Below the pieces are notes generated by a model, which was given only the letters and a program-made list of their open reading frames with translations, had not been told where the DNA came from and searched no databases. Position numbers and translations under genes: made by a program. Below, piece by piece: positions 7,205 through 57,235 of a stretch of 64,000 nt of DNA (position 1 is the stretch's first letter; every line of letters begins with the position of its first letter). The stretch comes from Prorocentrum cordatum (taxonomy: Eukaryota), in assembly GCA_963575745.1 (NCBI GenBank), contig CAUYUJ010000170.1, positions 1-64,000 on the forward strand, read 5' to 3'.

Positions 7205-7263
7205 CTCCAGAGGGAACCCGTCGATGTCGCACTCCATCGCCTCCCCGTCCAGCTCGTCCGCGC
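7205..7263 (-). CDS. Exon E of putative U2SURP/SR140/RRC1-like splicing factor (GADELDGEAMECDIDG[FPLE])
   Basis: Acceptor CCGCAG|GC. Phase-1 start matches exon D. GC3 very high. ELDGEAM/DIDG resembles the DLDGxP acidic repeats of U2SURP. Donor uncertain; a GT donor would end the exon at 7218. Confidence 0.65.
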
Positions 7264-8444
7264 CTGCGGCGGCGCTCGGGGAGGGCGGCCACGCTCGCCA
7301 GCGGTGCTGAGGGAAGATGGCCCCATACCACCACCGCCGAGCACCCAAAGGCGGCGAGAAGGACAAGCATATCTATATATATACATATATATATATACAC
7401 GCATCGAGAGAGAGAGAGAGACACACAAGCGTTTGCAAACATAGTAATTAACGAGAGGGAGAGGGAGGAAGGTGGGGACAAAGACGAGGAGAGGAGGCCG
7501 AGAGGTACGCGGAGACGAAGGAAGAGATGAGGCTGAGACTGGAAGAGGTAAAGAGAGAGAGAGAGAGATGAATACATACAGAAAGACTACGAGTAATACA
7601 CATTAACTACTGGAGTCACGCCGCGCCTCTGGCGCTGAGGTGTTAGTAGTCGGGCGCATTCGCAACGGCCGTTCCAAGGAGAAAAGCACTGATGACCAAT
7701 CTGAAAGAGGCCACCGGAAAAAATACTTCACGAGTCGAAAAAGAGATCACAAATAAGGAACGCTTGGGAAAGCCACGCTGGTAGCCATTTGGAGCTGTCT
7801 TGGGCTCTAGACGACAAGTCTCTGCTCTACGCTGTCTTGGGCTACATAGCCTCTGCCCGACGACCTTGTGGAATCCGTGGATAAGGAAGACGGGCCCCTG
7901 TGCCAGCAGGCGTTCAAGGAGGGGCATGTCTCACCCTTGGCTGTAAGAGCAGTGAAGACCTCACGGGAAGAACCCAAGGGATAAGCGTTCGCTCGCACGT
8001 GGACGGGTTTCACAACACACACACACACGCACACAAACACACACCTTGAGACGCCTCGCGCCTTCCTAGCGAAGAGTAAAAGGGCTCTTGGAACCGTTGC
8101 CCATAAACCTTAAAGTGTCTCCATGCTCCCTCCAGAGCCCATTGGCTTGGCCTCTTGAATTCCTTGCAGCGTTCCCCGGGTTCTCTTCGGACCGTCGCTT
8201 GTGCCTATGAGGCTGCTTCTTATGGCCCCTTAGTACGCTCCTGGAGCCTCTGGAGGGCCTGCTGGCCAGCCCTCCCAAGCCTGACCCCAACACGATTCCG
8301 TCGCGAGACCCCCTCTAGATCTAACGACAATGACAACCCAAAAGACAATCCCTGGAAAAAAACCTGAGGACCGCGCCGTCCTGCACACGTCGAACCTCAA
8401 GCGCATCGGCACCGCTGGATGCTGGACACCGCATCGGCACCCCT

Positions 8445-8830
8445 GAGGCCATCTTGGGAACGTCTTCGGGGCCGGCGTGGGCTACCTTGAGCTCTGCGGG
8501 CCCTATTTGGGGTGTTCGGGGCCCTCTTGCCGCCTCTGAGGCTATCTTGGGAACGTCTTCGGGGCCGGCATGGGCTACCTTGAGCTCTGCGGGCCCTATT
8601 CGGGGTGTTTGGGGCCCTCTTGCCGCCTCGGAGGCCATCTTGGGAACGTATTCGGGGCCGGCATGGGCTAGCTTGAGCTCTTCGGGCCTCGGGGGGGTTG
8701 GGGCCCTCTTGCCGCCTCGGAGGCCATCTTGGGAACGTATTCGGGGCCGGCATGGGCTAGCTTGAGCTCTGCGGGCCCTGTTCGGGGTGCTCGGGGCCCT
8801 CTTGCCGCCTCGGGGGCCGCCTCGGGAGGC
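8445..8830. repeat. ~90-bp tandem repeat, about 4 units
   Basis: ggccatcttgggaacgt(c/a)ttcggggccggcatgggcta(c/g)cttgagctct repeated. Confidence 0.9.
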
Positions 8831-10169
8831 TTCTGGGGGCCCGGGGAGAGAGAGCGGAGATGCCAAGACCGGGCGTGGGTCCCTCCCTCCCTCCCTCCCT
8901 CCCTCCTCCCTTCTTTCCCTCCCTCCCTCCCAAATTGCTCCAAAATCCCCTCCCTCCCTCACCGCCCCTCTCCCCTCCCTCACCTCCCCCTCCCTCCGTT
9001 CCACCCCCCATCCCCATCTCCTTCCTATCTCCCTCCCTCCCGCCCCGCACCCTCCCTCCCCTCCCTCTCGGCCCTCCCTCCCTCGCCTTCCTCCATTCCT
9101 CTCTTCCTCTCTCCCTCCCTCCATCCTCTCCTCAGTCCTCTCTTCCCTCCATCCCTCCCTCCACACTGTCTTCCCCTCCACCCCTCCCTCCCTTCTCCCT
9201 CCCTATCTCCCTCCCCTCCACCCCCTCCCACCCTTCTCTCCCTCCCTAAACCCAGCCTTCCCTCCCTTCCTCCCTTCCTTCCGGCCTCCTCCTATCCCTC
9301 CTCCAGTTCCCCTCCTCCTTCCCTCCTTTTCCCTTCTTTTCCTCCTCGTCCCTCCTCCTCCTCCTCCTCCTCCTCCTCCTCCTCTTCCTGCTCCTCCTCC
9401 GCCACCTCCTGTCTTCCACCCCCCTCCTCCTCCTCCTCCGCCTCCGCCTCCTCCTCCTCCTCCTCCTCCTCCCTTCCTCCTCCTCCTCCTCCTCCTCCCC
9501 CATGCCCCTCCCCCTCCTCCCCCTCCCCCTCTCCTCCTCATCCCCCTCCTCTTCCTCCTTCTTCTCCTCCTCCTCCTACTACTCCTCCTCCTTAGTCCTC
9601 ACTCCTCTCTCCTCACTCCTCACTGCTCCTCCGCCAATATGTTCTTCGATCCGCGGCCCCAGGTGCTCTGGTCACTTCCCCCGAAGCAGTCTTCCGCCGG
9701 GAGCCCGTCTTTGATGGGCCAGGGACCGACGACGGCCCCGGGGGCCAAGATGGAAGAGCAACTGCCAGTTGAAAGCTCAGATCGTCGGGGATCGGACGCC
9801 GCGGAACAAGCCGCAGCATCGTCGAGGCTCACCACCAGAACCCCAGACCCCATCCTCCCGCGGCGCTCCTCGAGCCCCTGTCGACCTGCGAGCGGCCCAG
9901 GAAGCCCGAACTGGGCGAGAACGCCCAGTTCGAAACAAAATTGCAGCGCTCGGGTCTCACAGGGAGGGTGGGGGGCAACCCTGAGCGGTTCCCAGATCTC
10001 CGACGTCGTCACCTTTTCACAACGCCAGCCCTGGGAGGCTTACGGTCGGACCGAGGCATAAGATCGAGGTCGGCTCGGGGAGGGTACCCTGATGTGTTTC
10101 GTGCTTGTTGGGTGTTCTTGTGCATCCTGGGGGAGGACACACTCGAGAACTCTCGAAGGCCTCATGTTT

Positions 10170-10490
10170 TTGACATTGTTGTTGATGATGATGATGCTGC
10201 TGATGATGATGATGACGATAATGATGGTGATGACGATGATTGTGATGATGATGGCGATGATGACGATGATGATGATTATGCTGTTGATGACGAGGCTGAT
10301 GGTAATGATGATGATGCTGCTGATGACGATGATGATGAATATGATCTTCATGATGGTGAGTATGAGTATGATGCTGATGACGAGGATTATGGTGAGGATG
10401 ATGATAATACTGCTGCTGCTGATGACAATGATGATGCTGATGCTGATGCTGCTGATGATGATGCTCATGTTGATGATGATGTTGTTGGTG
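10170..10490. repeat. (GAT)n microsatellite
   Basis: gatgatgat/gctgat runs. Confidence 0.9.
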
Positions 10491-11484
10491 TTGAACTCTC
10501 ATTTCTGACAAATAATTATTGTTGATCCCCCCACCGGCGCATACTGCTTTTTCAATCAAACTGTGCCCCTCGACGCTCGCACCTTGTTTCTTGACAGGGG
10601 AAATCTTGATGCTCAAACTGGGCCCCCGGCCCCCCGGATTACAACAACAACCGCTCCCGCTTGAGACTTCCTTACAATTTAGCCAGGACCGCCGCTCCCC
10701 CCCCCGAGATTCCTTCACATTTTATTCAGGAATCGCGCTCTCGCTTGGGACTTCCTTACCACTTATTCAGGAATCGCTCTCCCGGCGCCCTGGGGTCGCG
10801 CTCTCGCTGGAGACTTGCTTGCAATTTACTGAAGAATAGCGCCGTTGCCTTGGAATTTCTTGCAATTTGCTCAAGCGGCGCGCTCCCGACACCCAGGCAC
10901 CCAGGAGTCGCGCCCGTTGTGGCCCCATGTGCATGCCCTTCGTGGCCCCGCTGTCGCCGTTTGTGGCCCCCTCAGTCCTACGTGGCCCAGTTGCTACCCT
11001 CAGTGGCCCCATCGTTTCCTTCTGTGGCCCCGCATTATCTGCCCTTCGTGGCCCCCGCTTGTTCGCGCTCTTCGTGGCCCCATACGCATTCCCTTCATGT
11101 CCCCGCTGTCGCCCTTCGTGGCCTACTTCGTGTCCTTCGTGGCCCTGCTGTCGTTCTCTCTCGCTCTCGCTTTTGCTCGTCGTCGCCGTCGTCGTCGTCG
11201 TCGCCGTTGTCGTCGACGTCGTCGTCGTCGTCGCGGTCGGTCCCCTGTCCGTCCCTCTTGGGGTCGGGTCGACGGTCCGCGGCTGCCCCGCCGATCAGCG
11301 CTGCCGCTGGCCAGGCCGACGGTCCGCGGCCGCCCCGCCGCTTGCCGGGCCCCGGCCTGCAGGGAAGAAAGGAATACCCCCCAAAAGGGGTTCGATCGAA
11401 AACGAAGGGGGTGGGTTATCGAGGGTTTGGGAAGTGCGCGTTATTGGACACTCGAGCATGTAAGGGCGAACGGTCTTAAAATGA

Positions 11485-11506
11485 GTATTGTTGTTGTTGC
11501 TGTTGC

Positions 11507-11579
<73 letters not shown>

Positions 11580-11600
11580 ATTGTTATTGTTCTTGTTTTT
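11485..11600. repeat. (GTT)n microsatellite
   Basis: Near-perfect gtt run. Confidence 0.95.
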
Positions 11601-14600
11601 GTCCTTCTTCTTGTTGGGTGTTCTTCTGTCCCAGGTCTGGCCGTGCTCTCGGGGGGCGAGGCCGCCAGGGCCAGGAGAGGGGGCGGGGGGCACCTCGCGG
11701 CGCGTCCCGTGCCGGTGCCTTCCCGCTCGCCGTTGTTTTGTTGCCCCAGGCGGGTGCGAAGCGTGTCGGGTCGGGCGCAGAGGAGGCCGGCCGCAGAGGA
11801 GGCCGGCATCGGCAGAAGTTCTTAGGGCCTCTAGAATGCCCTTGACGGGATCTCTTATGTAAGTACAACATCTTGGGTGCGTCGTACGGGGCGCTCTTAG
11901 ATGCCTGCTGCTCGTCCTGTGGCCGTCTTAGGACTGGGGGCTGGCTCAAGAGGCCCAAACACGGAAACTGTCCAACTATTTGCACGAGTTTGCCCCTCTC
12001 GCTGTTTAGGTCTCAAGAACGTCGCAAGCACAGCCCCCGAGGACCCAAGAGGAGCCCAGCCCAAAAGGGGGTCCGCGAACGGACTCCAGGAGCATGGTTG
12101 GGAATCATCCCCCTCCTTCCCCCAAGATGGTTCCAGGACCCCTGCCAAGCACCCATGAGGCCGCCCAGAGGCCCACAGGGGAACTCCAAAAGGTCGCAAC
12201 CATGTTCCTCGGAGCCCTTCACCGGGAATCATTGGAAGCACGGCAGAGAATACGTTGCAGCCTTCAATCGCTCCCACTGCGCCTTGACCTGCAACCCAGA
12301 CGCTGTGGTGGGATGGACCGACGGCCTCTGGATCCATTGCTTCTTGTGTTCACACGACGACGATGACGATGACGATGACGACGACGATGCTGGATCAGAA
12401 GAAAGCGTAAAAATCTGTCTAGTTCCCCAAAGCCTTTCCACAACACTCTCGGCCCACCCCGCCGCCACCAGCTCTCGTCGACGAGATCGGTCAGACGGCC
12501 CAACACATGAACGCCTAGATGAACCAAAAAGACCTCCGTACATCGCCAAGATGCTCCAAGAGCTCTCGGCAACAACCCTCAAACGGCCCTACAAGGCCTC
12601 GAAGACGGTTCCGGACGTCCTAAGAGGGCCCCAACAGGACGCTCAGATGGCCAAAATGATGGCACCAACTGTAGGTCTCCTGCAAGTTTCTGGCTTCCAA
12701 GCGGTTCGGCTCAAGATGGTTCCAGGAGGGCCCCAAGGAGCCCAAAGAATGCCCCGCAGAGTCCCATGAGGGTACCAAGATGGCCCGAGGACGGCCCAGG
12801 ACGGCCCTAAGGCAGCCCAAGAGGAAACAAAACCAGAGACCCCTGCAGCTCAAGAGCGCACCCAAAAGGTGGAAAAGGGCCCCCAATAGGGCAACAGGGC
12901 CCAGGGGAGAGAGGTCGCCAAGAAGACCAAAGAGGCCCCCAAAACCGGCTGCCGAGGCCGCAAGCGGCACCAACATGCCGTGAAAGACTCCCCGCTTGGC
13001 CACGGGGTGGGCCGCCGACGCACCATAGGCGACTTCGACAACACTTGACCACTGACTCGACAAAGCTCGGGAGACAAACGACGGCCGAAGATTTACTCGA
13101 GCTCGCAAATACGTCTCCCTCAAAGAAACTACGAGCCTTTCAAATCTTGACGAAACAGTTGGCGTCAAGCCACTGGTTGCCGTCGGAACCCTGGGTTACT
13201 GGCGCAATCGGTAAGATTCGGAAACCGTAGGCCCCATTCCAAACAGTAGAATACCACTCCACAGCAGAGCACGAAACACCTTCTGAACAAGATTGCTGGC
13301 CGCCCATCAAGTCTTCTTCAACGCGAATATCAGAGATCCATTCTGTTTCCATACACGCAATAAAAGTTGAAAGCCACGGGTTCGTATTCTGAGGCATTCT
13401 CGCCGTCTTCCTCCTCATCCTCCACTTCCCCCCCTCCTCCCTCCTGCTGCTCCTCCTCCTACTCCTTCTTTGCCTCCTGCTGCATCCTCCCTGCCTTCCT
13501 TCCCAATCCTCCTCATCCCCTCCCTTCCTCCTCCTCCTCCTCCTCCTCCTCCTCCTCCTCATCGTCATACTTATCCTCATCCTCCTACTCCTCCTCGCTC
13601 CCCTCCGACCTCCCTCCTCCTTTTCCACCTTCATGGCGAGAGATCACTTCCCCCGCCCGAAGTGGCGGCGCCGACTAGGGTACCGCTGGGCAGAGTGGAC
13701 GATTGTCGGACAACCCATGGCCAGGGGCATCCTCACACAAACGGCGCCCCCCATACGTTTTCTAGAGTTCCATGCCTCCCCCACGAGTGGACCCAGGTTA
13801 GTTTCGTGGACTCCCCCCCCGCACCCATGGAGGAGCGGCGGACACAACGCGCACAAGGAGAAGCAGGAGAACACAATCACGCTCTGTGCAGTGAAATCTG
13901 GAAGGAACGCGACCGAAACGCGTGAGGGTGCTGGAGAAGCGCCTGGCAAGGGGAGGGAGGAGGAGGAGGAGGAGGGAGGAGGAGGAGGAGGAGGAGGAGG
14001 AGGAGGAGAGGGGGAGGAGGAGGAGGAGGCGGAGGAGGAGGAGGAGGAGGAGGAGGAGGAGGAGGAGGAGGAGGAGGAGGAGGAGGAGGAGGAGGAGGGG
14101 GAGGAGGGAGGAGGAGGAGGAGGAGGAGGAGGAGGAGGAGGAGGAGGAGGAGGAGGAGGAGGAGGGAGAGAGGAGGCGGCGCGCGCGGTAACGAATCGGA
14201 GGGCCTCACTGCCGCAGCTGCCGATGACGGGATATCGCCCTGCGCCAGGGGGGCCTCTCGGGGCCTCTTGGGGTCCTGGTCTCGGCCTCCTGGGCCTACA
14301 CCCTCCTCCCCTCCACCTCCTCCTCCTCCTCCTCCTCCTCCTCCTCCTCCTCCTCCTCCTCCTCCTCCTCACTCCTCCTCCTCCTCCTCCACCTCCTCCT
14401 CCTCCTCCTCCTCTCTCCACCTCCTCCTCCTCCTCCTCCACCTCCTCCTCCTCCTCCCTTTGGGGGCGGGCTGGTCTCGGCCTCCCGGGGGCCCCTCTTG
14501 GGGCCCTCTTGTGTTCCACCCCGCGGCCGTGGGCAGCGGTGCTGCAGGCAACGCCGTGGTTTCACCGTCCGTTGCTTATGCCCCGTTGTCTTGCGCCAGC

Positions 14601-14685
14601 TGGCCGCTAGGACATTCCACCCTCGGTAAATCTCAAAAGGTAATGGCCTCGACATGGCTCACACGTTCGCTGTAAGCTCGAGGGT

Positions 14686-15948
14686 TCATACCACGACAGC
14701 GGCAACAAGGTCTGGCAAAGCTTTCGAAATGGCCGGCACAATTGCATGATCCGACAAGTACTTGTAGCCTTCGGGAGGACAATGAGGTTTGCAACGCTCG
14801 CAGAGTTTGCCACATTCTTGCATGGTTTTGTGCAAATCGACAACGGTGACATTCCTTTCCGCCATGATCGTGGTCGCAATCTCGTTGAGCTCGAGGACTC
14901 GTTTCTCAGATGGGCTTAGAGCACCAGGCACCGAGCGGCTACCGCCAGGCATGGTCGTCAAGAAATAAAGTACAGTGGCTGGTTGCCTTCGCTGCAGTAA
15001 GGGTACCTTGGCAGCGGCCAGAATCGTGTCTGCAATTTCGCTCAACCCGTTCTGATACGTGATATTGTCGTCTGCGCCATCGTGAAGACCAAAGTTGAAA
15101 GTGATGACATCCCATGCTGGCAAGACATGGCGTGGAGTACGGAGGAAATACTTTGTGCATAGTTGCCCGTATTGAACGCCGTCCGCGTTTCCTCCGCCAG
15201 CGTTATCAGGACCATGCTGCACATTTGCCTTGCCGACCAGAGAAGCCCGCACGTTCATGATGTACCCAGCACTAACGCTGTCTCCAATGATCAAAACATT
15301 TGGCATAGCAGAGCTGATTGTAGATGGTCCTGGCCCACAGCAGCACCCGCCTGAAACTTTACCGACACCTGCACAACCAGGGTAAGATGTTGAGTTCGGA
15401 GGGGCGCAACCATACCCACCAGGCACCTTGTAGGCATCAGGGCTCTTTCCGATGCAGCACGTATCTCCTTCTGGACATTGTGTGCAACCGGACGCACCGC
15501 ATTTCTGCAAAGGTGGTCCTAAAGAAGAAGTGCCCGTGTTGGTCGCATGACGCGATGGACATGCGGCTATCCCGAGCACATGAATCCGATTATTGCTCCC
15601 ACAACGTTCGGTTGCATCACCAGTACATGGTTCTGCACGTGTGCACTGTGGATTCTTATCCTGGGGGATCGTGTAAGGACCAAAGCCGTGGTCGCAATAG
15701 CAATTGCCTCCGTTCTCCAAGCCAGCAAGAGATCCAGCTCCGAACCCAGCTAAGCAACACAAATATATGCAACGCTCTTGACTCATATTATTATCATTGG
15801 AAGCAGCGAGATACTTTAAAACACGTCGTTCTCCATCTGGCGTTTGGTACGGGTCGACGAAGCAGCCAATCGCCGAGGGCGATACACACTGATTGCTACA
15901 ATCGGTAACATGTGGCCACGTTGCAGCTAACATGGAGAGCGCACGCAT
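14686..15948 (-). CDS. Intronless WSC-domain + SGNH/GDSL hydrolase (retrogene)
   Basis: WSC pattern GCFVD..MSQERCIYLC..AGLENGGNCYCD..PCTGDATERCG. SGNH block I LIIGDSV, block III WDVITFNFGLHD, block V PH..EGY. TGA at 14686-14688. Start MRALSML at 15948; alternative ATG at 15999. Confidence 0.85.
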   Translation of the reverse strand: MRALSMLAATWPHVTDCSNQCVSPSAIGCFVDPYQTPDGERRVLKYLAASNDNNMSQERCIYLCCLAGFGAGSLAGLENGGNCYCDHGFGPYTIPQDKNPQCTRAEPCTGDATERCGSNNRIHVLGIAACPSRHATNTGTSSLGPPLQKCGASGCTQCPEGDTCCIGKSPDAYKVPGGYGCAPPNSTSYPGCAGVGKVSGGCCCGPGPSTISSAMPNVLIIGDSVSAGYIMNVRASLVGKANVQHGPDNAGGGNADGVQYGQLCTKYFLRTPRHVLPAWDVITFNFGLHDGADDNITYQNGLSEIADTILAAAKVPLLQRRQPATVLYFLTTMPGGSRSVPGALSPSEKRVLELNEIATTIMAERNVTVVDLHKTMQECGKLCERCKPHCPPEGYKYLSDHAIVPAISKALPDLVAAVVV

Positions 15949-15975
15949 CTTCCAGGAAGATGTTCTCCAAGTGGC

Positions 15976-16000
15976 CTTGAGCCAACTGGTTTGAGTCATG
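15976..16000 (-). other. Relict SL remnants (ATGACTCAAA-CCAGTTGGCTCAAG)
   Basis: TTGGCTCAAG is an exact SL 3' end at 15976-15985, preceded by a degenerate second copy. Confidence 0.6.
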
Positions 16001-16094
16001 ATGATGTTCTCCGTCAGATTTCGCCCTTCTGCTAGGGTGCGGCCAAGAACCCTTGGTTTTCCGCAAAAGCTTCCTACGAGGCGTGCAACACTGT

Positions 16095-16116
16095 CTTGAG
16101 CCAAAATGGCTACGGA
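16095..16116 (-). other. Full 22-nt dinoflagellate spliced leader (TCCGTAGCCATTTTGGCTCAAG) integrated at the retrogene 5' end
   Basis: Exact reverse-complement match cttgagccaaaatggctacgga. Confidence 0.97.
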
Positions 16117-16954
16117 CCATGGTTTCAGCGCCCTTGGCCGCGGCAAGTTCCCCGACACCGCGTGAACCGCGCAGCCTTTGGGCGATCTTAGCGCTCGGAG
16201 TTTCCTAGGGATTCGGATCTATTGTCGGACGAATCTCGCGATGTGGAAAGCGTCTAGAAACATCGATGTGCATTGCTTTGGAAAGGCTGTCGGGAACATG
16301 GACATCGAGGTTCCCGGAAGGCACTCTAGGAACATGGTCTAGGACGTGGACGCGATGGCTTCGAGAGGCTCTGGACCCTCGGGTCGGCTAAACGCAAGAG
16401 GATCCCGGGCAAGGGTGGCCTCCAGTGTGCGGCTTCAGTGGGCTCCCCCAGCCCCACCAAAGCGGCACGCGTGCTCGAATCTGGCCCGCCTGCGCCCGCC
16501 TGAAGCCGCGCACCAGAGGTCACTCCAGCGAAGGATCACTCTTACGCGTGCGGTCGATCGATCAGGGGCGTCTTAGGGCTACTCGACGGCGTCTCGGGGG
16601 CTAGGGGGCCTCGTGAGGGCTGGCTGGCGGTCTCGGGCTTTTTCGAACCTCTGTTGAGGCTCTCCAGGTGGCTTCTTGGGCGTTTTGGGCGGCCTCCTGG
16701 ACCGTCTTCGGGCCCTCTTGGGCGTTCTGGGGGTCCTCTGGAGGGACTCGTGAGCTGCTTTCGAGCGATGTCGAAGGCCTCTTAGGCCGTCTGCGGCCAT
16801 CGGGCATCGGCCAAACCGCGTGTCGTCGAAAGGCTCTCGGGGCTTCCTCGACGCCATTGTTGCTGCCCTTGGTCCACTTTCTGGACTGGTGACCTGTCTG
16901 TGGGGCTCTCCTCCTCCTTCTCCTCCTCCTCCTCCTCCTCCTGTCTCCCTACCT

Positions 16955-17510
16955 CCAGCTTTCCCAACTTTCTTCGATTTCCCCGCTGTCCTGGCTTTCC
17001 GAGCTTTCTTCGCTTTCCCCGCTTTCCAAGCTTTCCCAGCTTTCCTAGCTTCCCCAACTTTTCAAACTTTCCCTGCTTTCCAGCTCTGTTAGCCTTCCAA
17101 GCTGTCCCACTTTCCAACATTCCTGCTTTCTCGCTTTCTCGGCTTTCCCATCTTTCCCAACGTTCACTGCTTTCTCAACTTTCCCACCTTCCCCGCTTTC
17201 CCGCTTCCCAGCTTTCGAAATTTCCAAACTTTCCCCGAGTTTCCCGCTTTCCTCCGCTTTCCCACCTTACCCCGCTTTCCCAACTTTCACGCTTTCCCAA
17301 CCTTCCCGGCTTTCCAAGCTTTCCCCGCATTCACACTTTCCCACCCTGCCCTGCTCTCCAACTTTCACTGCTTTCCCCGCTGTCCCCCGCCTTCCGCGCT
17401 TGCCAGCTTTCCAGATTTCCAGGTTGTCCAGCTTTCCCGGCTTTCAGCTTTCCTCAGCTTCTCTTTCCCAGCCTTGTTCGCTTTCTCAGCGTTCCCCAGC
17501 TTTCACCCAG
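16955..17510. repeat. 9-bp tandem repeat (gctttccca)n
   Basis: ctttccc(a/c)(g/a) periodicity; produces FPS/KLG pseudo-ORFs. Confidence 0.9.
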
Positions 17511-17869
17511 CTCCCCCAAGAGGCCCAAGGGGACCCCAAGACGCCGCCAAGGAGCCCCAAGAGACCCCCCAGAGGCCCCCAAGAGGCCCCTAGGAGGCCC
17601 CAAAGAAGCCCCCAAGAGGCTTCAAAGAGGCCCCATAGAACGGTCGAGGGCCGGCGGAATGAGCGAAGCGATTCAATAAAAAACGCTCTCTTTTCGATAA
17701 TCCCCAGAACGTGCGTTGGCCCCCGCGTGTGTTTGCCCGTCGAGGCCCTTCGGTGCGACGCAGGCGATGCAGTTACTGCTCTGCTGGCTGGGCTGAAGTG
17801 GGGGTAAGCACACACACACACATTGGCCCAACACCGAAGGACAGGAGACCATCGAAGGACAGGAAGCAA

Positions 17870-18040
17870 CCCTGAGGAAGTAAAGGAACTAACACCTGAA
17901 GGAAAGGAAGGAACCCTGAGGAAGTCAAGGAAGTAACACCTGAAGGAAAGGAAGTGTCACCTGAGGAAGTCAAGGAAGTGACACCCGAAGGAAAGGAAGT
18001 AACACCTGAGGACCACCGATCCTCGCCACCGCAGGAAACT
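17870..18040. repeat. Short tandem repeat (cctgaggaagtcaaggaagtaaca variants)
   Basis: Alternating 21/24-bp units. Confidence 0.8.
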
Positions 18041-18203
18041 GAAGGGGCCCCAGGACACACAAACAAATACACACAAATAGAACGATTCCCCATATATATT
18101 CCCATATTGTCTGGGTTTCTGTCTTCCCCCCCACACTTCCCATATTTTCCCCATATCTCCTGGGGGATCGACGATGAATTGTGTCTGTGTGTTTCTTCCC
18201 CTC
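18041..18203. mobile_element. ~160-bp dispersed repeat, MITE-like; other copies at ~18612-18774 and ~21126-21274
   Basis: Three similar copies: aaatacacacaaata..cccatatt..ggggaatcgacgattcattgtgtctgtgtgtt, with agggg/cccct ends. Confidence 0.8.
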
Positions 18204-18292
18204 CTGCGAAACGCACAACACCGCACCGCCCCCGACGCCGGTGCCCGCACGCGGGGCGAAGGGCGGCGCGGGCGGCGCGGGCGGACGCCGGC

Positions 18293-18359: not shown

Positions 18360-19030
18360 CTGGGAGGGAAGAGGGGCATCAATGAAGGGGCCCGATGGTC
18401 CAGCATCGTCATCGATGGTTCTCGCCGAGAAAAAATGCACACGTCCGAGCGATGCCGGGCCCCCCAGGGAGAGAAGAGGAGGCCCGAGGACGGCCCGCCA
18501 CACGGGCACAATCTCGTGGCCCTCGCCGAGCCACGGGCTCCCCCCGGGGGCAGGACCGGTCAGCATCAGATCGATGGAATCGGACGGGATCGAGACGAGC
18601 CTCGAAGCTTTGAAGGGGCCCACAGACACACAAGTAAATACACGCAAATAAAACAGATTCCCCATAGTTTCCCATATGTTCTGGGTTTTTGTCTTCCCCC
18701 CCACTTCCCATATTTTCCCATATTTTCTGGGGAATCGACGATTCATTGTGTCTGTGTGTTTCTTTCCCCCCTGAATCTAGTCGGGCATGTGCGAAAAAAA
18801 CGGGGGCGGCGGCGGCGGCGGACGACGGCAGTGTCGTGAAGACGTGCTCAACTCTGAGAAAAACTCTGTTTTGAGGAGCCTGGGGCCTGTACAGAAGCGA
18901 GGGCCCGGGTCAACTCGCAGAGTAAGAATGGAAAGAGAGCTGGCCAGTCTGGTGTGCCACCCGTCTGTGTCGACGTGCTTTGGCCTCAGCTCTATAGGCA
19001 GAGTTTGGGCGAAACAATCTAATTCCCCGA

Positions 19031-19742
19031 AAATAGCATGCTCATAAGCAGCAGCTCCGGGAAATGACAGACGTGACTCGACATTGTAGTCGACGAAGGC
19101 AAGAGGTACGGTCTGGAATTGGATTGGGGCAAGACTGTAATGCATGAGCGTGCACAATTATGGCGCGATTGTCTCCCATACTGGTGCCCCGCTGACAGCG
19201 GTGGAGCAAGCAATGTATCTTGGTGGCCTGTTGAACGTCAATGGCATAGTAAAGCCAGAAGTGACCAGGAGAATCGGTAAGGCCAAATCCGCCTTTCAGA
19301 AATTGTATCAATATTGGTCTCACGCCAACATCAGCCGCGCCAGACAAATATAAGTGTACAAAACGATCGTTTTGCCGAAGTTGTTGTACACTTTGGAAAC
19401 GCTTTGGCTGCTGCAGGCAGACAAAGACCGTTCAGACAGCTTCCACACGCAATTTTTAATGACTAGTTCTAAGACTTCCAAGCGCATATGTTTCACGAGT
19501 GTCTGATAAAAAGGTTTGGGAGCGAGCGGGGGAACACCCACTGAGCTCCACACTTCGCTGGCGCCAAACGGCGCTACACAAGAAAATTGCAGCGTTGCCC
19601 GGAGCCGAACCTTTCAGACTTTTAACATGCCAGCCTGGCACCGACCTGCCCAGAAGATGGGCGCACTGGCGACGCAGGGGAAGGCCTAAACAGCAGTGAG
19701 CCCCTTGCGTGTATAGCCTTCTGCCTACACCTTCGCTTTAAG
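19031..19742 (+). pseudogene. 5'-truncated, decayed non-LTR retrotransposon (LINE) RT C-terminal region
   Basis: LDIVVDEGKRYGLELDWGKT, YLGGLL..EVTRRIGKAKSAF, IVLPKLLYTLETLWL, RVSDKKV, RRRGRPKQQ. In-frame stops and frameshifts. Confidence 0.85.
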
Positions 19743-20634
19743 TGTGGCGCTTCTGTTACCCCTCTCCTCTCCTCCCCCTCCCCCCCGCGTGGCGCCGATA
19801 CGTTTGCTGGTGAACTCGTATCGTTCTCACTGCCTGCATTTCTCTGCCCAGTCCGAGCCTGGGGCTATTGCTGGTGTTTCCGGTCACACGCATCACTATT
19901 TATTTTGCCAATGCGTCGTCTGTGCGCCAGGCTTGACTGACTGACAAAAAACAAGAAATAGGCAAACATAGTCAAAAAAAACGTCCCCTGACTATTTTCG
20001 GAATATTTTTGAGCATGTCCCCTGTAGAGGGACAAGCCCGACTTAAGACAAGCAGGATCCGTCAGCATGGAATCGGGAGGTCGGACCGAGTCTGAATTGG
20101 GGATGGGCAGAGCTCCCTTTAGTAAAGCGTGGTTCAATGAAAACGACCTCGGGCCCAAACCTGGCGGGCGTAAGCCTGGAAAATGACGGCCGCGGCGCCC
20201 TCTCGAGAAAAGAAATCGGACAATTCACTAATCGACGTGTCAGGGTGGGGGTTCTGCCCAACTCGGACAGAAGGTGCGTCGGACCCCCCCCCCCTTGGGT
20301 CATTGAAAAAACCCGGCGGGCGGTTTCTCGCTGTGTTCGACCTCTGGGGCTGAGTCGGGCATGCCCCATATACAGGAGGACTATTCAAGAATAGCTCAAA
20401 GATAATAGGGTGACGATTTCATGTGTCTTCGCTATTGTTAGTTTTGTTGACAACTGCTTGAGTATGTCTTATTCTTATCCCAAAATCCTCCTGTCAGAGG
20501 ACATGCCCGACCTGACTCTGGGGGCCCTTGCCAGACCTCGAGCCGTCCAAAAAACAGCTCGGAAGGACAAAACTGGGACCTGGGGACTGGTCGAGAACTT
20601 CGGGGTCGACGTTGTGAACAAAGCATGACGTCGG

Positions 20635-21012
20635 TTGGCGGTGAGCGAGGGGGGAAGCGAGAAGGAGAAGGCCTTCTCAGAAGGCGGCGGGGAATCTCAG
20701 AAGGCCCCCGGCCTTCTGAGAGGTCTTCGTGTCTTCAAGGGAGGCTCAAGCAGATTCTCGGAAGGCCAGGCGACTTCCGAGCCTTCTGAGAAGACCTTAC
20801 TCCAGATTTCGTAATAAAGGGAGAGGGGTCTCATTTCGGGGGGGGGTCTCTTCCAGGCTATCTTGGAGGGCCTGGGGGGTCTGGGACCGATGTTTTGGAG
20901 GGTTCTCCCACGGGGGAGGTCTGAAATGGCTTGTCTTGGAGGGTCCAGACCCCCTCCCTTTTATTACGAAATCTGTAGTATCCTTCTCGCTTCCCCCCTC
21001 GCTCGCCGCCGA
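20635..21012. mobile_element. MITE with TTGGCGG...CCGCCGA termini and 5-bp TSD gtcgg; relative of the psb31 intron element
   Basis: gtcgg at 20630-20634 and 21013-21017. Long TIR gagcgaggggggaagcgagaagga / tccttctcgcttcccccctcgctc. Shares gccttct(a/g)agaag motifs with 61871-62046. Confidence 0.8.
20800..20978. mobile_element. TA-flanked MITE nested in the 20635-21012 element
   Basis: TA|ctccagatttcgtaataaagggagaggggtct ... agaccccctcccttttattacgaaatctgtag|TA. Confidence 0.8.
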
Positions 21013-21568: not shown

Positions 21569-21784
21569 TGGATCGGAAACGTTTGCTTCGCGAGTCGCGG
21601 CGGCGGCCTCGGCGACACGCTATGTCCTGCGAGCGGATAGCCTGTCGCTCCGCTCTCCGGGGCGGGAGGCTGGGAACGGCTCGGGGCGTTGACGCTTGGG
21701 GACTGGGAAATGGTCAGCGTATCGCGCCGAGGCGCGGTGGGCCAGAACTGGCGGCGCGACACGCAAAGCCAAAAATCCCAACCG
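21569..21784. mobile_element. ~215-bp MITE family, copy 1
   Basis: Shares the core gtcgcggcggc..gcggatagc..gtcgctccgctc..ggggcgggagg..ggggactggg with the copies at 26055 and 58792. Confidence 0.75.
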
Positions 21785-22021: not shown

Positions 22022-22057
22022 CTGCTCCTTCTCGTGCCAGTGCAGCTCGTAGGCGGC
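22022..22057 (-). CDS. Exon C of putative U2SURP-like gene (AAYELHWHEKEQ)
   Basis: CCCGCAG|GCC...CAG|GCAGT; 36 nt, phase 0/0, every third position G/C. Continues LIDRL naturally. Confidence 0.7.
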
Positions 22058-49929: not shown

Positions 49930-50228
49930 TTTCCTGGATCTGCGCCCGGGCCCCCCCTGCGCGGTGCTCCGGATGCCTATTTTACGCACGTGCTCTTCAC
50001 TGAGACTGAGGGAAACACCCCAGGCCCGAAACAAAGCAATCCTCCGGATGCCTGGAGTCCTTCTGCCCCCCGACGATTCCCCTCGTTACCTTCTGACTGA
50101 CTGCACTACACACACACGACAAGATATCGTGCCATAAGACGACCTTAGAACGCACTCTCCGTCGATCTTTGCGGATCCTGGGGTGCCCTAGAGTGCACGG
50201 CTGAAGAAGCAGGTCTAGCGGGGCACAC

Positions 50229-50285
50229 CAGGCGGTCGATGAGCCACTCCCTCCTGGCGTCCTCCAGCGGGAGCTCCCTGGAGGC
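50229..50285 (-). CDS. Exon B of putative U2SURP-like gene (ASRELPLEDARREWLIDRL)
   Basis: GAG|GCC acceptor, CTG|GTGTG donor; 57 nt, phase 0/0, all third positions G/C. WLIDRL fits the second SAP helix. Confidence 0.7.
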
Positions 50286-50339
50286 CTCGCGGCCAGAATG
50301 TCTCGTGGCCTTCCTCGTCGCCTCTGGTCACCATCGCCA

Positions 50340-51054
50340 TCATAGCGGTCGTCGATGCCGCCATAATCATCCTTATCATCACCACCATCCACCACCGCCA
50401 CCACCCATCATCATCAGCATCACCACCACCATCATCATCATAATAATCATCATCAGCATCATCGCCATCGTCATTCTCAACATCATCATCGTCATCGTCA
50501 TCCTCATCCTCGTCGTCATCATCAGCATCACCATCATCGGCATCATCGTCACCATCATTATCATCATCATCATCATCTCTACCATCGTCTTTATCGTCAT
50601 CACCATTATCATAACTAGCACCACCACATTTATCAACACCACCACTGCCACCATCACAATCACTGACGTAATCACACTTATCAACGACATCATCGTCATC
50701 ATCATATCATCATCGTCGTCACCATAACTGTCATCATTGTCATCATTGGCATCGTTGTCATCACCATCATCGCTATTATCGTCGTCATCACCGCCATCGT
50801 CAACACCATCGTGATCATCATCACCACAAGCATCACCATGCTGATCATCATCGTCATCATCATTGTCGTCATCATCATCATCATCATCAGCATCATCATT
50901 TTCATCCCTGTCATCATTGTCATCATCACCATCATCATCACCATCGGAACCATAATTACATTCATCCTCACAAACATCATCCTCGTCATCGTCTTCATCG
51001 TCACTACCGTCATCTCAACTACAACCAACCACCACAATTATCACCACCATTGTC

Positions 51055-51086
<32 letters not shown>

Positions 51087-51440
51087 CGTCATCGTCATCA
51101 TCGTCATGGTCATCATCATCGTCATCATCATCACGACAGCCAGCATCTACATCGGAATCATCATCATCATGAGCTTCGTCATCGTCTTCGTCACTGTCGT
51201 CGTCATCGTCATCGTCATCGCAAACAGCATCGACATCACCTAATCCTCGCCGTGACCATCATGCTTGCAGACACAGCCTCTAAAATCGTCGTCATCGGCG
51301 GCATCGTCATCATCATCATCACCATCTTCATCATCATTTTCATCATCATCATCATCATCATCATCAGCATCGTCATCGTGACCGGTGATGTCACAGTGAC
51401 AGCACCATCATCATTACCATTATCATACACCTCCCCGTCA
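50340..51440. repeat. (CAT)n degenerate microsatellite
   Basis: catcat/cac/cgt runs. Confidence 0.95.
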
Positions 51441-52859
51441 TAGCTGCTGTCACAAGGCCGCCTCGCACGGACTTCGCGGCTGCCCTGCAGGCGGACCGCC
51501 CGAACCTGAAACTGATGGCATCACGGGCAGCGGATCGACCGAGCCTGCTGGGACTGAAACTTGACGCACACGTTTCAGCATGGACGAACCGACATCCTCC
51601 TCCTCCTCCTCCTCCCCTCCTCCTCCTCCTCCTCCTCCTCCTCCTTCTCCCCTATTCCGTCCCTCATTATCTCCTCCTCCTCCTCCTCCTCCTCCTCCTC
51701 CTCCCCCTCCTCCTCAGCAGGATGAAACGTTTGATCATTGACCAAATAAAGAAAAGCATCTCCGACGATGTGATTGTGGCCGACCGGCGGCTTCTGGCCC
51801 TCGGGGGCCGCTGTCGGGCCGCGGACGAAAAACTACCCCCGTGAGAAGGGGATCGGGAACTTTGGGGTCGCTGATTGAAGCAGAAACACATCGTCGGATG
51901 TCTGGCAAGAACGAACTGGAAGCGGGAAGCGAGGGGGGCAGAGAACAAGAGCGAAGACAGTTGCAGCGGACAGAGGAAGAACAGATAATCAGCAAGAGAG
52001 GGACAAATAGAAGTGCCAAGGAGAGGCGCACGGGAAGCCGAAAGCACGGCAAGAAACAGGACGACAATGCAACACCTGCCGACCAAGCCAGCGATCATCT
52101 AGAATTCGAGTCAAACGCCGTCTTACGCTAAGCATGGCGCATCTTCCCCCTTCTCCTCCTTCCCCTCCTCCTCCTCCTGTTCCTCCTGCTCCTCTCTCCT
52201 CATCCTGCTCTTGGTCATCCTCCTGCATGAACCGTCTAGAGCCCCGTCGATCCAAGCACCCCCCGAAACACAACCCCCTCCTCCCCCTCCTTCCTCCTCA
52301 GTGTCCTAAAATTCCTCCCTCTCCCCCTCCTCTCTCCTCCCTCCTCCCCCTCCTCCTCCTCCTCCTTCTACTCCTCCTCCTCCTCCTCGGTTCGGTGCGG
52401 TTCGGAAGAGCGCAAGGGGTTCAAGGCGCACACACGGGTGAGACGAGAGCAACGCAGGAATAACGGCAGAGACAGGCATCCCGCTTCCGGCGCCGTGGGG
52501 CGCATCCCTCCCTGCGAGCGAGGGGCCGTCAACAACAGGGAACGATCATCCACAACAAAAAGACACCAACGAGAAAAAGGAAACGGAAATACCATACAAT
52601 CAGGAGACGAAGAATATTCCCCATAAGCACGGGCCAACTTACTGCCAAAGGCGCCGGAACCCCAACTGGGGCATTGCACCACATTCTCGGGGCAGTGCCA
52701 CAAGGAGGAATGCCTAAGAATCGGCCTTGGCCGAATCAAAACCTCCCCCTAGAGTGCGTTGTTTCACGGACTGCGTGCAACTATTCGCACGGCGTCTGCG
52801 CACCCAAGAGCACACAACGAGATGACATGCCTGCACACACACGCACACACGAGTCGTGC

Positions 52860-52891
52860 CCGTAGTCGTACCCGTAGTCGTCGTACTCGTC

Positions 52892-52925
<34 letters not shown>

Positions 52926-52998
52926 CAGTAGTAGTAGTAGTAGAAGTAGTAATAGTAGTAGTAGGAGTTGTAGTAGTATTAATTATACAACCGTAATC

Positions 52999-53061
<63 letters not shown>

Positions 53062-53580
53062 AAGGTAGTAGTAGTAGTAGTAGTAGTAGTAGTCGTGGGC
53101 ATAGTAATAGTAGCATTAGCCGGAATCGCAGTAGTAGTAATAATAGTCGTAGTAGCCGGAGCAGTAGTCGCAGCAGTCGTGGCGGATGTGGTAGTAGTAC
53201 TAGGTAGCGGTAGTAGTAGTAGTAGTAGCAGCAGTAGTTGTAGTAGTCGTGGTAACTTTAGTGGCAGCGGAAGTAGTAATAGCAGGGCAAACAGTAGTAG
53301 CAGTAGTAGTAGTAGTAGTCGTAGTCGTAGTCGCAGTCGTAGTTGATGTAGCCGGTGTAGTAGTAATCATATGAATAGTTGTCGTGGAAGTCGTACTTGA
53401 AACAGTAATTTTCGGAAAAGTACTGGGAGTAATCGTGGAGGTAGTCCAAATAGTGGTGGCAGTACAAGTACCACTGCAAGTCGTAGGAGTAGCAAAAGTA
53501 CTCGTAGTCGTCGTGTCGTCGTTGTAGTAGTCGTGGTACTCGTAAAAGTCGTCGTCGTAGTAGTAGTACTCGTAGTAGCG

Positions 53581-53618
<38 letters not shown>

Positions 53619-53658
53619 CGTGGAACAAAAGAAGTAGTAGTAGCTGTGATAGTGATAA

Positions 53659-53691
<33 letters not shown>

Positions 53692-53811
53692 CAGTAGTAG
53701 TAGTAGTAGTAGTAGTAGTAGCAGTAGCAGTAGCAATGGTAGTAGTAGCCGTCGCAATCGACATAGAAGTCGTCGTAGCAGTTGTAGTAGTAGTTGTCTC
53801 AGTAGTAGCAC

Positions 53812-53856
<45 letters not shown>

Positions 53857-53857
53857 C

Positions 53858-53891
<34 letters not shown>

Positions 53892-55073
53892 ATCGTGGTA
53901 GTAGTAATAGTAGCAGTAGTAGTAGTAAGAGTAGTAGTAGTAGTAGTAGTAGTAGACGCAGTCGCCGTAGCCGTAGCCGTAACAGTGGTCGCAGTAGTGG
54001 TAGTAAGACTAATAGCAGTAGACGTAGAAGTAGTAGTAGTCGCAGTCGTAGCAGTCGTAGTAGTAGTTGCTGTAGCTGCTGCTGCCGAATAAGTAAAAGT
54101 CGTGCGAATGGTAATTTCAGAAAATTAGCAGTAGACGTAGTAGTAGTAGTCGTAGTCGTACGTGCCGTCGCCGTCGTACTCGTCACCATAATGGTAGTAA
54201 GAACACTGGTAGTGAGGATAGTGGTGGAAGTAACAATGATAATACTACTAGTGGCCGTAGTAGCAGTAGCAGTAGCGGTGATACTAATAGTGGTAGCCGT
54301 AGTGGTAGTAGTAGTAGTAGTAGTAGTAGCAGCAGTCATCGTAGTAGTCACAGTAGCAGTGGTAGTAGTAATACGAAAGGCAGCAGTAGTAGTAGCAGCA
54401 GTAGTCGTAGTAGTGGTAGTAGTAGTAGTAGTAGTGGTAGTAGTAGTCATAGTAGTAATCATGGAAATAATAAGAATAGAAGGGGGAGGGGTAATAGTAG
54501 TAGTCGTGGTGGTCGCAGTCGTAATGGTAGTAATAATAGTGGTTGTCATAGTAGCGATAGTTAGAATACTGGTTGTAGCAGTACCCGTAGTAGTAAACAT
54601 AATAATGAAGGCAATCGTGGTAGCCGTAGTTGTGATATCCATACGAGCCGCAATAGGTAGTAATAGTAGTAGCTGTAGTAGAAGAAGTACGAGTAATAGT
54701 AATAGCAGAAGTGGTAGCAATCGTACTAGTAACGGTGGTAGTAATAATAGTAAGGGTAGTTGTGGTGGTAATAGTAGTAGTCGTCGTCGCCGTCGTCGTG
54801 ATAGTTGTAACCGTAACCGTAGTAGTCGTATGCGCAGTAGTAACTAAAGTTTCTACAGCTGCAGTTGTAGTAGTAGAACATGTAGTAGTGATAGTAGCAA
54901 GAGCAGTAGAAGTAATAGTAGTAGTCGTCGTAGTGGTAGTAACAGTAGTAGTCGTAGTAGAGTCGTAGTAGTAGCAGTAGTACTAGTAGTAGTCGTAGTA
55001 GTAGTCGTAGCAGTAGTAGTAGTAGTAGTAGTAGTAGTAGTCGTCGTCGTCGTGGTGGTAGTAGTAGTAGTAT

Positions 55074-55166
<93 letters not shown>

Positions 55167-55167
55167 T

Positions 55168-55207
<40 letters not shown>

Positions 55208-55390
55208 CAGTAGCAGTAGTAGTAGTAGTAGTAGTAGTAGTAGTCGTCGTAGTCGTAGTCGTAGTAGTAGTAGCAGTAGCAGTAGTAGTAGTAGTAGTAG
55301 TACTAGTAGTCGTAGTAGTTGTTGTTGTGGTAGTTAGTGGCCGTAGTAGTCATAGTGGTAGAAGTAGCATTAGTAGTTGTAGTAGTAGAA
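52860..55390. repeat. (GTA)n microsatellite, ~2.5 kb
   Basis: gtagtagta runs with gca/gtc variants. Confidence 0.97.
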
Positions 55391-55589
55391 GAAGGAGGAC
55401 GAGGAGGAGGAAGAGGTGAGGGGGGAAGAGGAGGAGGAGGGGGAGAGAGAGGACGAGGAGGAGGGGGAGGAGGAGAAGGAGGAGGAGAAGGGTATCATGC
55501 CACGAAATTCAAACACACACCACACATACAATATACCCATTCAAGTACCAAACCTGTACAATCAACTTGGTACTCGACGTCCCTTCCTT

Positions 55590-56060
55590 CCGTCAGTTCT
55601 GGAGACGAAACAAATACGTCTGAAGAAGAAAATACTCCTGATCAAGAAGTGCTCCTGAAGAAATGAGATACTTACGAGGACGAAAGAAATACTCCCGAAG
55701 AAAAACGAAGTTTTGCTGAAGCACTTCTGGAGAAGGAAAAAGTGCTTCTGAAGAAGAAGGACGTGCTACTGAAGAAGAGAGGCATACTTCTGAAGGGGAA
55801 AGGAGTACTCCTGAAGAAGAACAAAATGCTTTTGAAGAAGGAAGAAGTACTCCTGAAGAGGGACGAAGCACTTCTGAGGAAACTTCTGATATAAGTACTT
55901 CTGAAGAAGAAAGAAGTACTTCTAAAGAAGGGAGACGTCCTCCTGAAGCAGAGGGAAGTGCTCCTAATGAAAAAAGAATTAGTTTTGGAGAAGGACGAAG
56001 CACTTCTGAGGAAGCTTCTGATATGAGCACTTCTGAAGAAGAGAGAAGTAATTCTGAGAA
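55590..56060. repeat. 21-bp tandem repeat (agtacttctgaagaagaaaga-like)
   Basis: About 20 degenerate units. Confidence 0.85.
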
Positions 56061-56347
56061 GGAATCAGCCGGGATTGGTCCCAGTAAACCGGTATTGGTA
56101 TCCATTCCGGGGGCAATCTCCTCCTCGCCCTCGTCCTCCTCCCCCCTCCCTCCTCCGACTCCCTCGCTCGCCCGCGCGCCGGGGCCCGCGTCCGAAGACG
56201 CCCTGCCTGTTCGGAGGCTGACGCCACGGAGGTCATGCAAGGGGGCATGGGGTCACTCCCCAACGACGGACGACGGAGCCATAGCAAGGAAGGCCACGAC
56301 AGGACGACAGATGACGGATTCGTCGTCGGCCTCCTCCCCCTCCTCCG

Positions 56348-56349
<2 letters not shown>

Positions 56350-56379
<30 letters not shown>

Positions 56380-57075
56380 AACAGCGGCATCTTCACCACC
56401 CCTCATCGCCCTCATCATCACTATCATCAGCATCATCACAATCGTCAGCATCAGCATCATCGTCATCATCATCGTCATTACCATCATCTTCATCGTCAGC
56501 ATTATCATCGTCGTCACCGTCGTCGTCATCATCACCACAATAATCACATCATCATCACAATCATCACCAACACCATCATAACCGTCGTCGGTATCGTTAT
56601 CACTGTCGTCGTGAGCATCAGCATCAACATCCGCATCATCAGTATCAGCATCCGCATCCGCATCACCACGATCATGCTCATCATCCTCAGAATCCTCATC
56701 ATAATCATCATCAGCATCACCATCATCATCATCCTCACCATCCTCATCATCATCACAAGCATCACCACCATCATCACCATCACCATCATCATCACCATCA
56801 CCACCACCATCATCATCAGCATCAACATCCTCGTCATAACCACCATCACCAACACCATCACCATCATGATCATGATCAGCATCATCAGCATCATCATTAT
56901 CGTCATCCTCATCATCACCATCAACATCATCATCGCCGTTGTCGTCATCGTCATCGTGACCGGCACCATCAACATCATCATCACCATCATCAGCAGCATT
57001 ACCACCATCAGTACCACCATCATCCTCAACATCATCCTCATCCTCATCCTCATCATCGTCATCATCATCATTCTT
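56350..57075. repeat. (CAT)n microsatellite
   Basis: catcat runs. Confidence 0.95.
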
Positions 57076-57142
57076 CCTACTCCTCCTCCGACCCCCTCTT
57101 CCCCATGGCCTTCATCTCCGCCTTTCCTCCCGACCGGCTCGC

Positions 57143-57235
57143 CTCGACGTGGGAGGTGGAGAATCGCAAGCCGCGGGTGCGGCACATCTTCTCGAGCTGC
57201 GAGAAGTGCTGCTTGCGCCAGTCCTCGGGCGGCCA
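57143..57235 (-). CDS. Exon A of putative U2SURP-like gene ([WPPE]DWRKQHFSQLEKMCRTRGLRFSTSHVE)
   Basis: TGGCAG| acceptor (alternative GAG|GAC start at 57223), GAG|GCGAG donor, very high GC3. SQLEKMCRTRGL matches the SAP first-helix pattern. Confidence 0.72.

Follow-up and report, generated by a model that had tools for sequence, protein, structure and literature searches.

Small exons of a probable U2SURP (SR140/RRC1) ortholog dispersed over 50 kb of Prorocentrum cordatum DNA

Concerning the structure of nuclear genes in dinoflagellates, PMC10666404 gives for Prorocentrum cordatum a mean intron length of 4.7 kb, a mean exon length of 240 nt and a genome GC content of 59.7%, and Table 2 of that paper lists GC, GT and GA donors at 51%, 25% and 24%, respectively, along with AGG acceptors at 80-97%. 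Far longer introns are on record, e.g., a 26,372-bp intron of C. cohnii that is singled out as notable in a review (PMC11453091). The present study deals with a stretch of 64,000 nt of P. cordatum DNA (GenBank assembly GCA_963575745.1, contig CAUYUJ010000170.1, positions 1 to 64,000 of the forward strand), hereafter called the window, in which five short coding pieces, designated exons A to E, are very probably consecutive mid-gene exons of the nuclear dinoflagellate ortholog of U2SURP, a gene also known as SR140 or RRC1.

The locus resembles the P. cordatum genes characterised in PMC10666404 in its GC content (57.8% in the window vs 59.7%), in the dominance of GC donors, in its AG/G acceptors (here and below, a slash marks the splice boundary) and in the kilobase scale of its introns. 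It departs from the means printed there in that its introns average 12.4 kb, whereas its exons measure only 36-81 nt. With 28.2 kb, the longest intron is at the top of the lengths printed in these two sources, but it is not new in kind. A housekeeping splicing factor of this kind is to be expected, and the architecture of its gene agrees with what is published on large dinoflagellate genomes.

All five peptide strings are unique in the whole window and situated on the minus strand (Table 1). The strings DWRK...SHVE (57223-57143) and ASREL...DRL (50285-50229) coincide with their exons, ARLAA...GRG extends from 18359 to 18291 and ADELDG...DIDG from 7261 to 7217. The coding portion amounts to 297 nt within a span of 50,016 nt, i.e., 0.59%. 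All five exons are preceded by AG and have G as their first base throughout, and the four modelled donors of exons A to D are either GC or GT. For exon E, the probable end is 7208, followed by a GA donor (CTG/GAGCAT); an end at 7205 is also allowed. The joint between exons D and E is in phase 1, with exon D ending at 18293 and exon E starting at 7263, such that the upstream partner of exon E must be in phase 1 as well.

Table 1. Positions of the modelled exons and introns, of repeats within the introns and of other genes in the window (position 1 is the first base of the forward strand)
Feature	Position	Strand	Length	Peptide or content	Splice signals and remarks
Exon A	57223-57143	minus	81 nt	DWRKQHFSQLEKMCRTRGLRFSTSHVE	acceptor gag/G, donor GAG/GC
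Intron 1	50286-57142	minus	6857 nt	mostly imperfect trinucleotide arrays	GC 48%
Trinucleotide arrays	50406-51377, 52874-55388, 56349-57071		up to 2.5 kb		within intron 1; 62-69% matches
Exon B	50285-50229	minus	57 nt	ASRELPLEDARREWLIDRL	donor CTG/GT
Intron 2	22058-50228	minus	28171 nt
Tandem segmental duplication	~32.2-37.2 kb and ~39.9-44.9 kb				within intron 2; 7.7-kb offset, 94-98% identical
Exon C	22057-22022	minus	36 nt	AAYELHWHEKEQ	acceptor cag/G, donor CAG/GC
Intron 3	18360-22021	minus	3662 nt
Exon D	18359-18293	minus	67 nt (as modelled)	ARLAAGSGAGAGAARASAAAGR + G	donor GAG/GC
Intron 4	7264-18292	minus	11029 nt (as modelled)	nested spliced-leader-relic retrogene and several simple-repeat arrays
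GDSL-like retrogene	14686-16116	minus			within intron 4; same strand as host
Exon E	7263-7208	minus	56 nt (as modelled)	(G)ADELDGEAMECDIDGFPL	acceptor cag/G; phase 1
Psb31-like gene	62277-61566	minus	176 aa		exons 62277-62051 and 61869-61566
Second spliced-leader relic	62716-64000	plus			21/21 nt perfect; ATG at 62741, 3 nt after the relic; open reading frame runs off the window

For intron 1, two splice solutions exist that yield an identical protein, namely GAG/GC...GAG/G, as modelled, and a pair shifted by 8 nt, CCG/GT...CAG/G, in which exon A ends at 57135 with a GT donor and exon B starts at 50277. The protein is the same in both cases because the first 8 nt of the intron (GCGAGCCG, 57135-57142) and the first 8 nt of exon B (GCCTCCAG, 50278-50285) both encode Ala-Ser-Ar(g), and the donor tally is therefore either three GC and one GT or two GC and two GT. 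Intron sliding or the use of alternative splice sites may have left this pattern. At junctions 2 and 3, only a single solution preserves the conserved length of the family, exon C being the sole solution that fits both of its junctions. The start of exon D is backed by the residues ARLAA, which are common to two homologous proteins (P0001 and P0003, see below).

A first-pass annotation of this DNA had proposed a hidden gene of about 100 codons in five micro-exons over 50 kb. Such a set of five small exons is borne out by the unique minus-strand strings, by the profile ranks reported below and by the splice signals, and the proposed introns of ~6.9, 28.2, 3.7 and 11.0 kb as well as the proposed donors (three GC and one GT) agree with the model in Table 1, the alternative for intron 1 giving two of each. 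The term micro-exon suits these exons in so far as they are small, but only exon C comes near its usual meaning. Likewise, the exons do join in frame, as had been supposed, but the joint between D and E splits a codon and does not fall between whole codons. The outer limit had been set at 57235, which is 12 nt too far; the codons in question (57224-57235, WPPE) are probably intronic, since the family has an invariant Lys-Leu before DWR, with which they disagree. Finally, what had been taken for a hidden gene is a piece of a real gene, but only its middle portion: the encoded segment corresponds to residues ~613-705 of a protein of ~1060 aa, and no other exon of it is found in the window.

A profile was built from 17 full-length homologs and searched against all stop-to-stop frames with a minimum length of 8 aa, on either strand of the whole window. 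The best four of the 1188 six-frame rows are exons A, B, E and C, with 60.9, 28.5, 20.8 and 10.0 bits and with independent E-values (i-E) of 7e-18, 4.6e-8, 9.2e-6 and 0.018, respectively. All four rows are on the minus strand and at colinear profile positions (A 618-648, B 639-665, C 664-681, E 695-719); the fifth row (8.8 bits) matches low-complexity sequence of the opposite strand.

With exon A, extended in frame, as a query, two long proteins (P0001 and P0002) were retrieved, which possess RRM, SURP and CID domains in that order according to Pfam, one of them with a cwf21 domain in addition. Exon A is 84-87% identical to these two proteins, and in exon C all 11 aligned residues are identical to P0001; exon A alone had no match among solved structures at E up to 10. 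A search of proteins with the segment yielded 24 near-length and eight shorter relatives, and the spliced peptide of 100 residues aligns with all 32 of these homologs at 50-76% identity (E 7e-22 to 1e-46). At least 99 of the 100 residues are covered in 26 of the homologs, the remaining six being truncated fragments. Among the named relatives are RRC1 of Symbiodinium microadriaticum, a partial RRC1 of Symbiodinium sp. KB8, a protein of Effrenium voratum and MMETSP transcripts. RRM, Surp and CID occur together in the Pfam annotation of 13 of the 24 near-length relatives; the other models are shorter or incomplete. The peptide of the window retains every family-invariant residue of the segment, and the five frames are open.

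The spliced origin of one of these relatives can be read from its contig: P0001 comprises 1063 aa (3192 nt with the stop codon) on a contig of 3286 nt, and it derives from spliced RNA because this contig has no space for introns. A scan of JGI contigs gave 83 pattern matches and, from these, eight confirmed loci, none of them from the source species and four of them resembling complementary DNA (cDNA; L001-L004). In L001, L002 and L004, the counterparts of exons A, B and C adjoin to the exact base (in L004, exon A is situated at 2041-2121, exon B begins at 2122 and exon C at 2179), so that the splice junctions fall where the homology of the genomic sequence breaks. The joining of the exons by transcripts, as the first-pass annotation demands it, is thus seen in relatives, the cDNA contigs of which join the homologous segments without a gap. 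A further JGI contig (L007, 4158 nt) is apparently genomic and contains a distant, intron-bearing U2SURP-like fragment, whose source is probably a different eukaryote of that sample set; it was dropped as a reference for intron positions, since it is only ~38% identical to the dinoflagellate proteins. The comparisons below are confined to L001-L004, the loci L005, L006 and L008 having been set aside.

The nucleotide identity of the exons to the JGI loci is ~72%. Between exons A to C (174 nt) and L001-L004, the proportion of nonsynonymous differences (pN) is 0.12-0.18 and that of synonymous differences (pS) 0.68-0.87, the synonymous sites being saturated. The ratio of nonsynonymous to synonymous rates (dN/dS) is ~0.11 in the three loci with a computable dS and saturated for L001. 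GC content at third codon positions (GC3) reaches 98%, and the GC content of the exons is 73% vs 58% in the window. The exons have been subject to long-term purifying selection.

The best solved relative of the dinoflagellate protein P0003 is human U2SURP (SR140; PDB 9r8v, chain SR) with E 3.9e-42, followed by a generic RRM protein with 5.7e-10. Together with the matches of the spliced peptide to all 32 homologs, of which the full-length ones are RRM-SURP-CID(-cwf21) proteins, this confirms the family assignment of the first-pass annotation. In human U2SURP as in the dinoflagellate homologs, RRM, SURP and CID follow one another in this order, and acidic DLDG...DGxPL repeats come after the CID; most of the dinoflagellate homologs additionally possess a cwf21 domain and a basic tail rich in Arg, Lys and Ser. 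Exon E encodes DELDGEAMECDIDGFPL, in which the family-invariant D, G, D and G are kept (D..G....DG). The likeness of this acidic motif to the human repeats, to which the first-pass annotation had pointed, holds in that the two align, albeit weakly when taken alone (domain i-E 4.2e2), within a significant match of the whole sequence. The two Symbiodinium records named RRC1 (P0014 and P0027) show 59% identity to the spliced peptide over all 100 residues; their name is an automatic annotation taken from Arabidopsis RRC1.

Despite this general similarity, there is a clear difference between the human and the dinoflagellate proteins: P0003 has ~110 residues between the CID and the acidic repeats, whereas in human U2SURP the CID is aligned up to residue 672 and the repeats start from 692, and nothing in the human protein corresponds to the module of ~60 residues that exons A to C encode. 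This module is rare. With a fragment of 150 aa as a query, 45 clusters at E 1e-3 or better were found among 1.84 billion representatives, and of the 23 clusters that were scanned (new, at least 258 aa long and without prior characterisation), 20 show a CID immediately ahead of the matching region; of the remaining three, two are the weakest hits and unrelated.

An AlphaFold model of the module, with a predicted local distance difference test score (pLDDT) of 85-95 over residues 20-100, consists of a helix (27-38), a second helix (41-50), a loop of 17 residues and a long helix (68-106). The first-pass annotation had ascribed a SAP-like segment to plant RRC1, and the predicted succession of helix, loop and helix in the module is reminiscent of SAP and LEM domains. 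At the sequence level, a 76-aa segment of P0001 gave no Pfam match to SAP (PF02037) at E up to 10, the only hit being a spurious one to Xlink (E 0.16), and Foldseek returned nothing for the model at E 0.001 or better (best E 1.2). In VIA-align, nine of the 50 rows shown have SAP or LEM in their title, with Z 3.9-5.1 (best Z overall 6.2, all below the caution level of 8 given by the tool); examples are the Hcc-1 SAP domain with Z 4.7 and the emerin LEM domain with Z 5.1 (root-mean-square deviation of 1.6 over 41 residues). Other rows (Rho N-terminal domain, Ku70 C-terminus, PIAS1, FAN1) presumably represent the helix-extension-helix class. The best Atlas score is 0.80, and a SAP cluster appears first at rank 21 (0.75), below the trust level. 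The loop of the module is much longer than that of SAP domains. Judged from the model, the resemblance to SAP and LEM would be a lead at the level of the fold, not membership.

Taken as parts of one U2SURP gene, exons A to C would encode this conserved module behind the CID, exon D a variable Ala/Gly linker and exon E the first acidic repeat of the form D-x-D-G-x-P-L. The exons would be joined by ordinary cis-splicing with dinoflagellate signals, i.e., GC, GT or GA donors and AG/G acceptors, and the introns of 3.7 to 28 kb would have grown through satellites and trinucleotide arrays, through a segmental duplication and through an inserted retrogene. We infer transcription of this copy and splicing according to the model. 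The remaining ~970 codons should be situated outside the window, in which case the whole 64 kb would sit inside one very long gene.

Concerning the contents of the introns, ~60% of intron 1 is trinucleotide-type repeat, with long low-complexity open reading frames (ORFs) on both strands. In intron 2, each copy of the segmental duplication comprises a tandem array of 93-nt units and a long satellite array of ~146-nt units; the long spurious ORFs over the satellite arrays of this intron have no Pfam match. In the window as a whole, 358 ORFs of at least 100 aa are found, of which 245 with an entropy of at least 3.6 were scanned with Pfam and 113 were dropped as low-complexity. The statement of the first-pass annotation that all large transposons are intronic is unsupported: a transposase, reverse transcriptase or integrase domain occurs in none of the 245 scanned ORFs and in none of the 26 largest ones, non-autonomous elements still being possible. 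Terminal inverted repeats of the introner type (exact, at least 7 nt, within 40 nt of the ends) are present in none of the four introns, and no Rfam family reached the gathering threshold.

At a distance of 4.3 kb upstream of exon A, the window contains an intact, compact gene for a Psb31-like extrinsic protein of photosystem II (PF18240, 29.4 bits vs a cut-off of 25, E 1e-6). It has a hydrophobic N-terminal presequence and a single GT-AG/G intron of 181 nt, and its compactness contrasts with the introns of 3.7-28 kb of the adjoining U2SURP exons.

Several observations weigh against the assignment of the five exons to an intact U2SURP gene. Neither the profile nor motif patterns revealed, in 57224-64000 or in 1-7207, a U2SURP exon that would encode residues preceding ~613 or following ~705: eight upstream and three downstream motif patterns recovered only exon E, the weak upstream profile rows all have -0.9 bits or less, and downstream there are only low-complexity rows of poly-Glu type with at most 4.2 bits. 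An exon for RRM, SURP or CID was found nowhere within the window; if this locus encodes these domains, their exons should be situated past 64000. As the Psb31-like gene and the plus-strand retrogene are situated upstream of exon A, this flank could be intergenic and the copy 5'-truncated. Exon D, being of low complexity, gives no profile score alone, and for its 3' end there are 12 phase-1 donor candidates (GT, GC or GA) in the first 133 nt, the modelled GAG/GC included; the two equivalent solutions for intron 1 have been mentioned. The selection test uses distant relatives, and a recent pseudogenisation is compatible with it. Moreover, no transcript of the source species was seen: among public RNA runs, 24 are listed for 50150-57300, with shares of at most 0.14 and none with half of the words. 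These shares, small and nearly equal across eight unrelated studies, marine metatranscriptomes included, look generic, and no conclusion is drawn from them; perfectly periodic 31-mers make up 1.8% of this interval.

Some of these points would be expected of an orphan partial copy, i.e., a truncated duplicate or a young pseudogene of U2SURP with the functional copy elsewhere. The 14 kb of flank without a further exon, the presence of a compact gene on the same strand and of a retrogene on the opposite strand in the upstream flank, and the failure to find a same-species protein with this segment in the protein collection searched are all in line with it. We nevertheless consider such a copy improbable, as the five frames are open and every family-invariant residue is retained, the splice signals are all intact, GC3 and dN/dS have the values of a constrained gene (98% and ~0.11), and flanking introns of more than 7 kb are unremarkable compared with those of 3.7-28 kb measured in the same gene. 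The Psb31-like gene is either nested in the next upstream intron of U2SURP or marks the end of the U2SURP piece; we favour nesting, because flanking introns of that length are nothing unusual here and the exons give every sign of being functional. Slightly less probable still than an orphan copy is a real gene whose intron lengths are partly artefacts of assembly, the arrays or the 7.7-kb duplication having been expanded, collapsed or mis-joined, such that neither the 50-kb span nor the 28-kb intron would represent true sizes. Repeat-rich sequence of the kind present here, with two nearly identical blocks of ~5 kb and long satellite arrays in intron 2 and the extensive trinucleotide-type repeat in intron 1, is error-prone in assembly. 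The window, however, contains no N and nothing that marks a join, and the duplicate blocks differ by 2-6%, like real paralogous copies. Introns comparable to those modelled here are, furthermore, published for dinoflagellates, as printed for C. cohnii (PMC11453091) and, with regard to the mean, for P. cordatum (PMC10666404). That the five exons are mere chance frames in GC-rich and repeat-rich DNA without any gene is the least credible explanation by far, with a practically negligible probability. Many of the 358 ORFs are indeed spurious, and exon D is of low complexity, but the four top profile rows, the best with an i-E of 7e-18, succeed one another colinearly on a single strand, every one of the 32 homologs aligns, and the junctions fit the cDNA of relatives to the exact base; a chance origin is excluded by these comparisons.

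Beyond the assignment to consecutive U2SURP exons, a wider proposal can be put forward, which we regard as possible but doubtful. The window might be situated within a single U2SURP gene, which at this density of exons would extend over several hundred kb. Its introns would harbour, on the same strand, the intact Psb31 gene for a plastid-targeted protein and the GDSL-like retrogene and, on the opposite strand, the other retrogene; the spliceosome would then pair sites at least 28 kb apart and ignore internal trans-splice acceptors and 3'-end signals, and the module of exons A to C might be a lineage-restricted SAP/LEM-like insert. If this were true, long-distance splicing would act on the mRNA of a factor of the spliceosome's own U2 small nuclear ribonucleoprotein. 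The locus is a concrete case for the study of splicing over tens of kb with other genes and spliced-leader-tagged retrogenes in between.

For the annotation of such genomes, the locus is relevant in that ~300 coding bases, divided into portions of 36-81 nt, are dispersed over 50 kb and rely on GC and perhaps also GA donors. A structure of this sort is invisible to standard gene finders and easily split across scaffolds. Gene structures like this may contribute to low BUSCO figures, the recovery in one large dinoflagellate assembly being only 57.9% according to PMC10666404. In animals, a complex containing SR140 is reported to repress short exons with weak flanking 3' splice sites (PMC8594467); beside this role, the short exons in the U2SURP gene of a dinoflagellate are curious, but they are not evidence of autoregulation.

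The dinoflagellate spliced leader (DinoSL; motif as printed in PMC6050394) occurs twice in the window as a perfect match of 21 nt vs none expected from 100 shuffles, which fixes the dinoflagellate taxon. Both copies fit the DinoSL-tagged retrogenes described in PMC6050394 and PMC5585692 in that a perfect spliced leader is situated directly 5' of an intronless ORF. Unlike the retrogenes described there, one of the copies is found inside the intron of another gene and on the same strand, and neither a parental copy nor a poly(A) remnant was seen. The plus-strand ORF that follows the second relic matches no Pfam family; this retrogene is arranged head-to-head with the Psb31-like gene. In the copy within intron 4, no poly(A) remnant was found in ~300 nt past the stop codon. 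There, the full spliced leader of 22 nt (16116-16095) precedes an intronless ORF of 437 codons (ATG at 15999, stop at 14688-14686), which encodes a GDSL-like lipase/acylhydrolase domain (PF13472, 30.3 bits, E 7e-7, under the curated cut-off of 32.9). The N-terminal part of the encoded protein is rich in Cys, and just past the ATG a second, truncated relic of the spliced leader (TTGGCTCAAG) is found.

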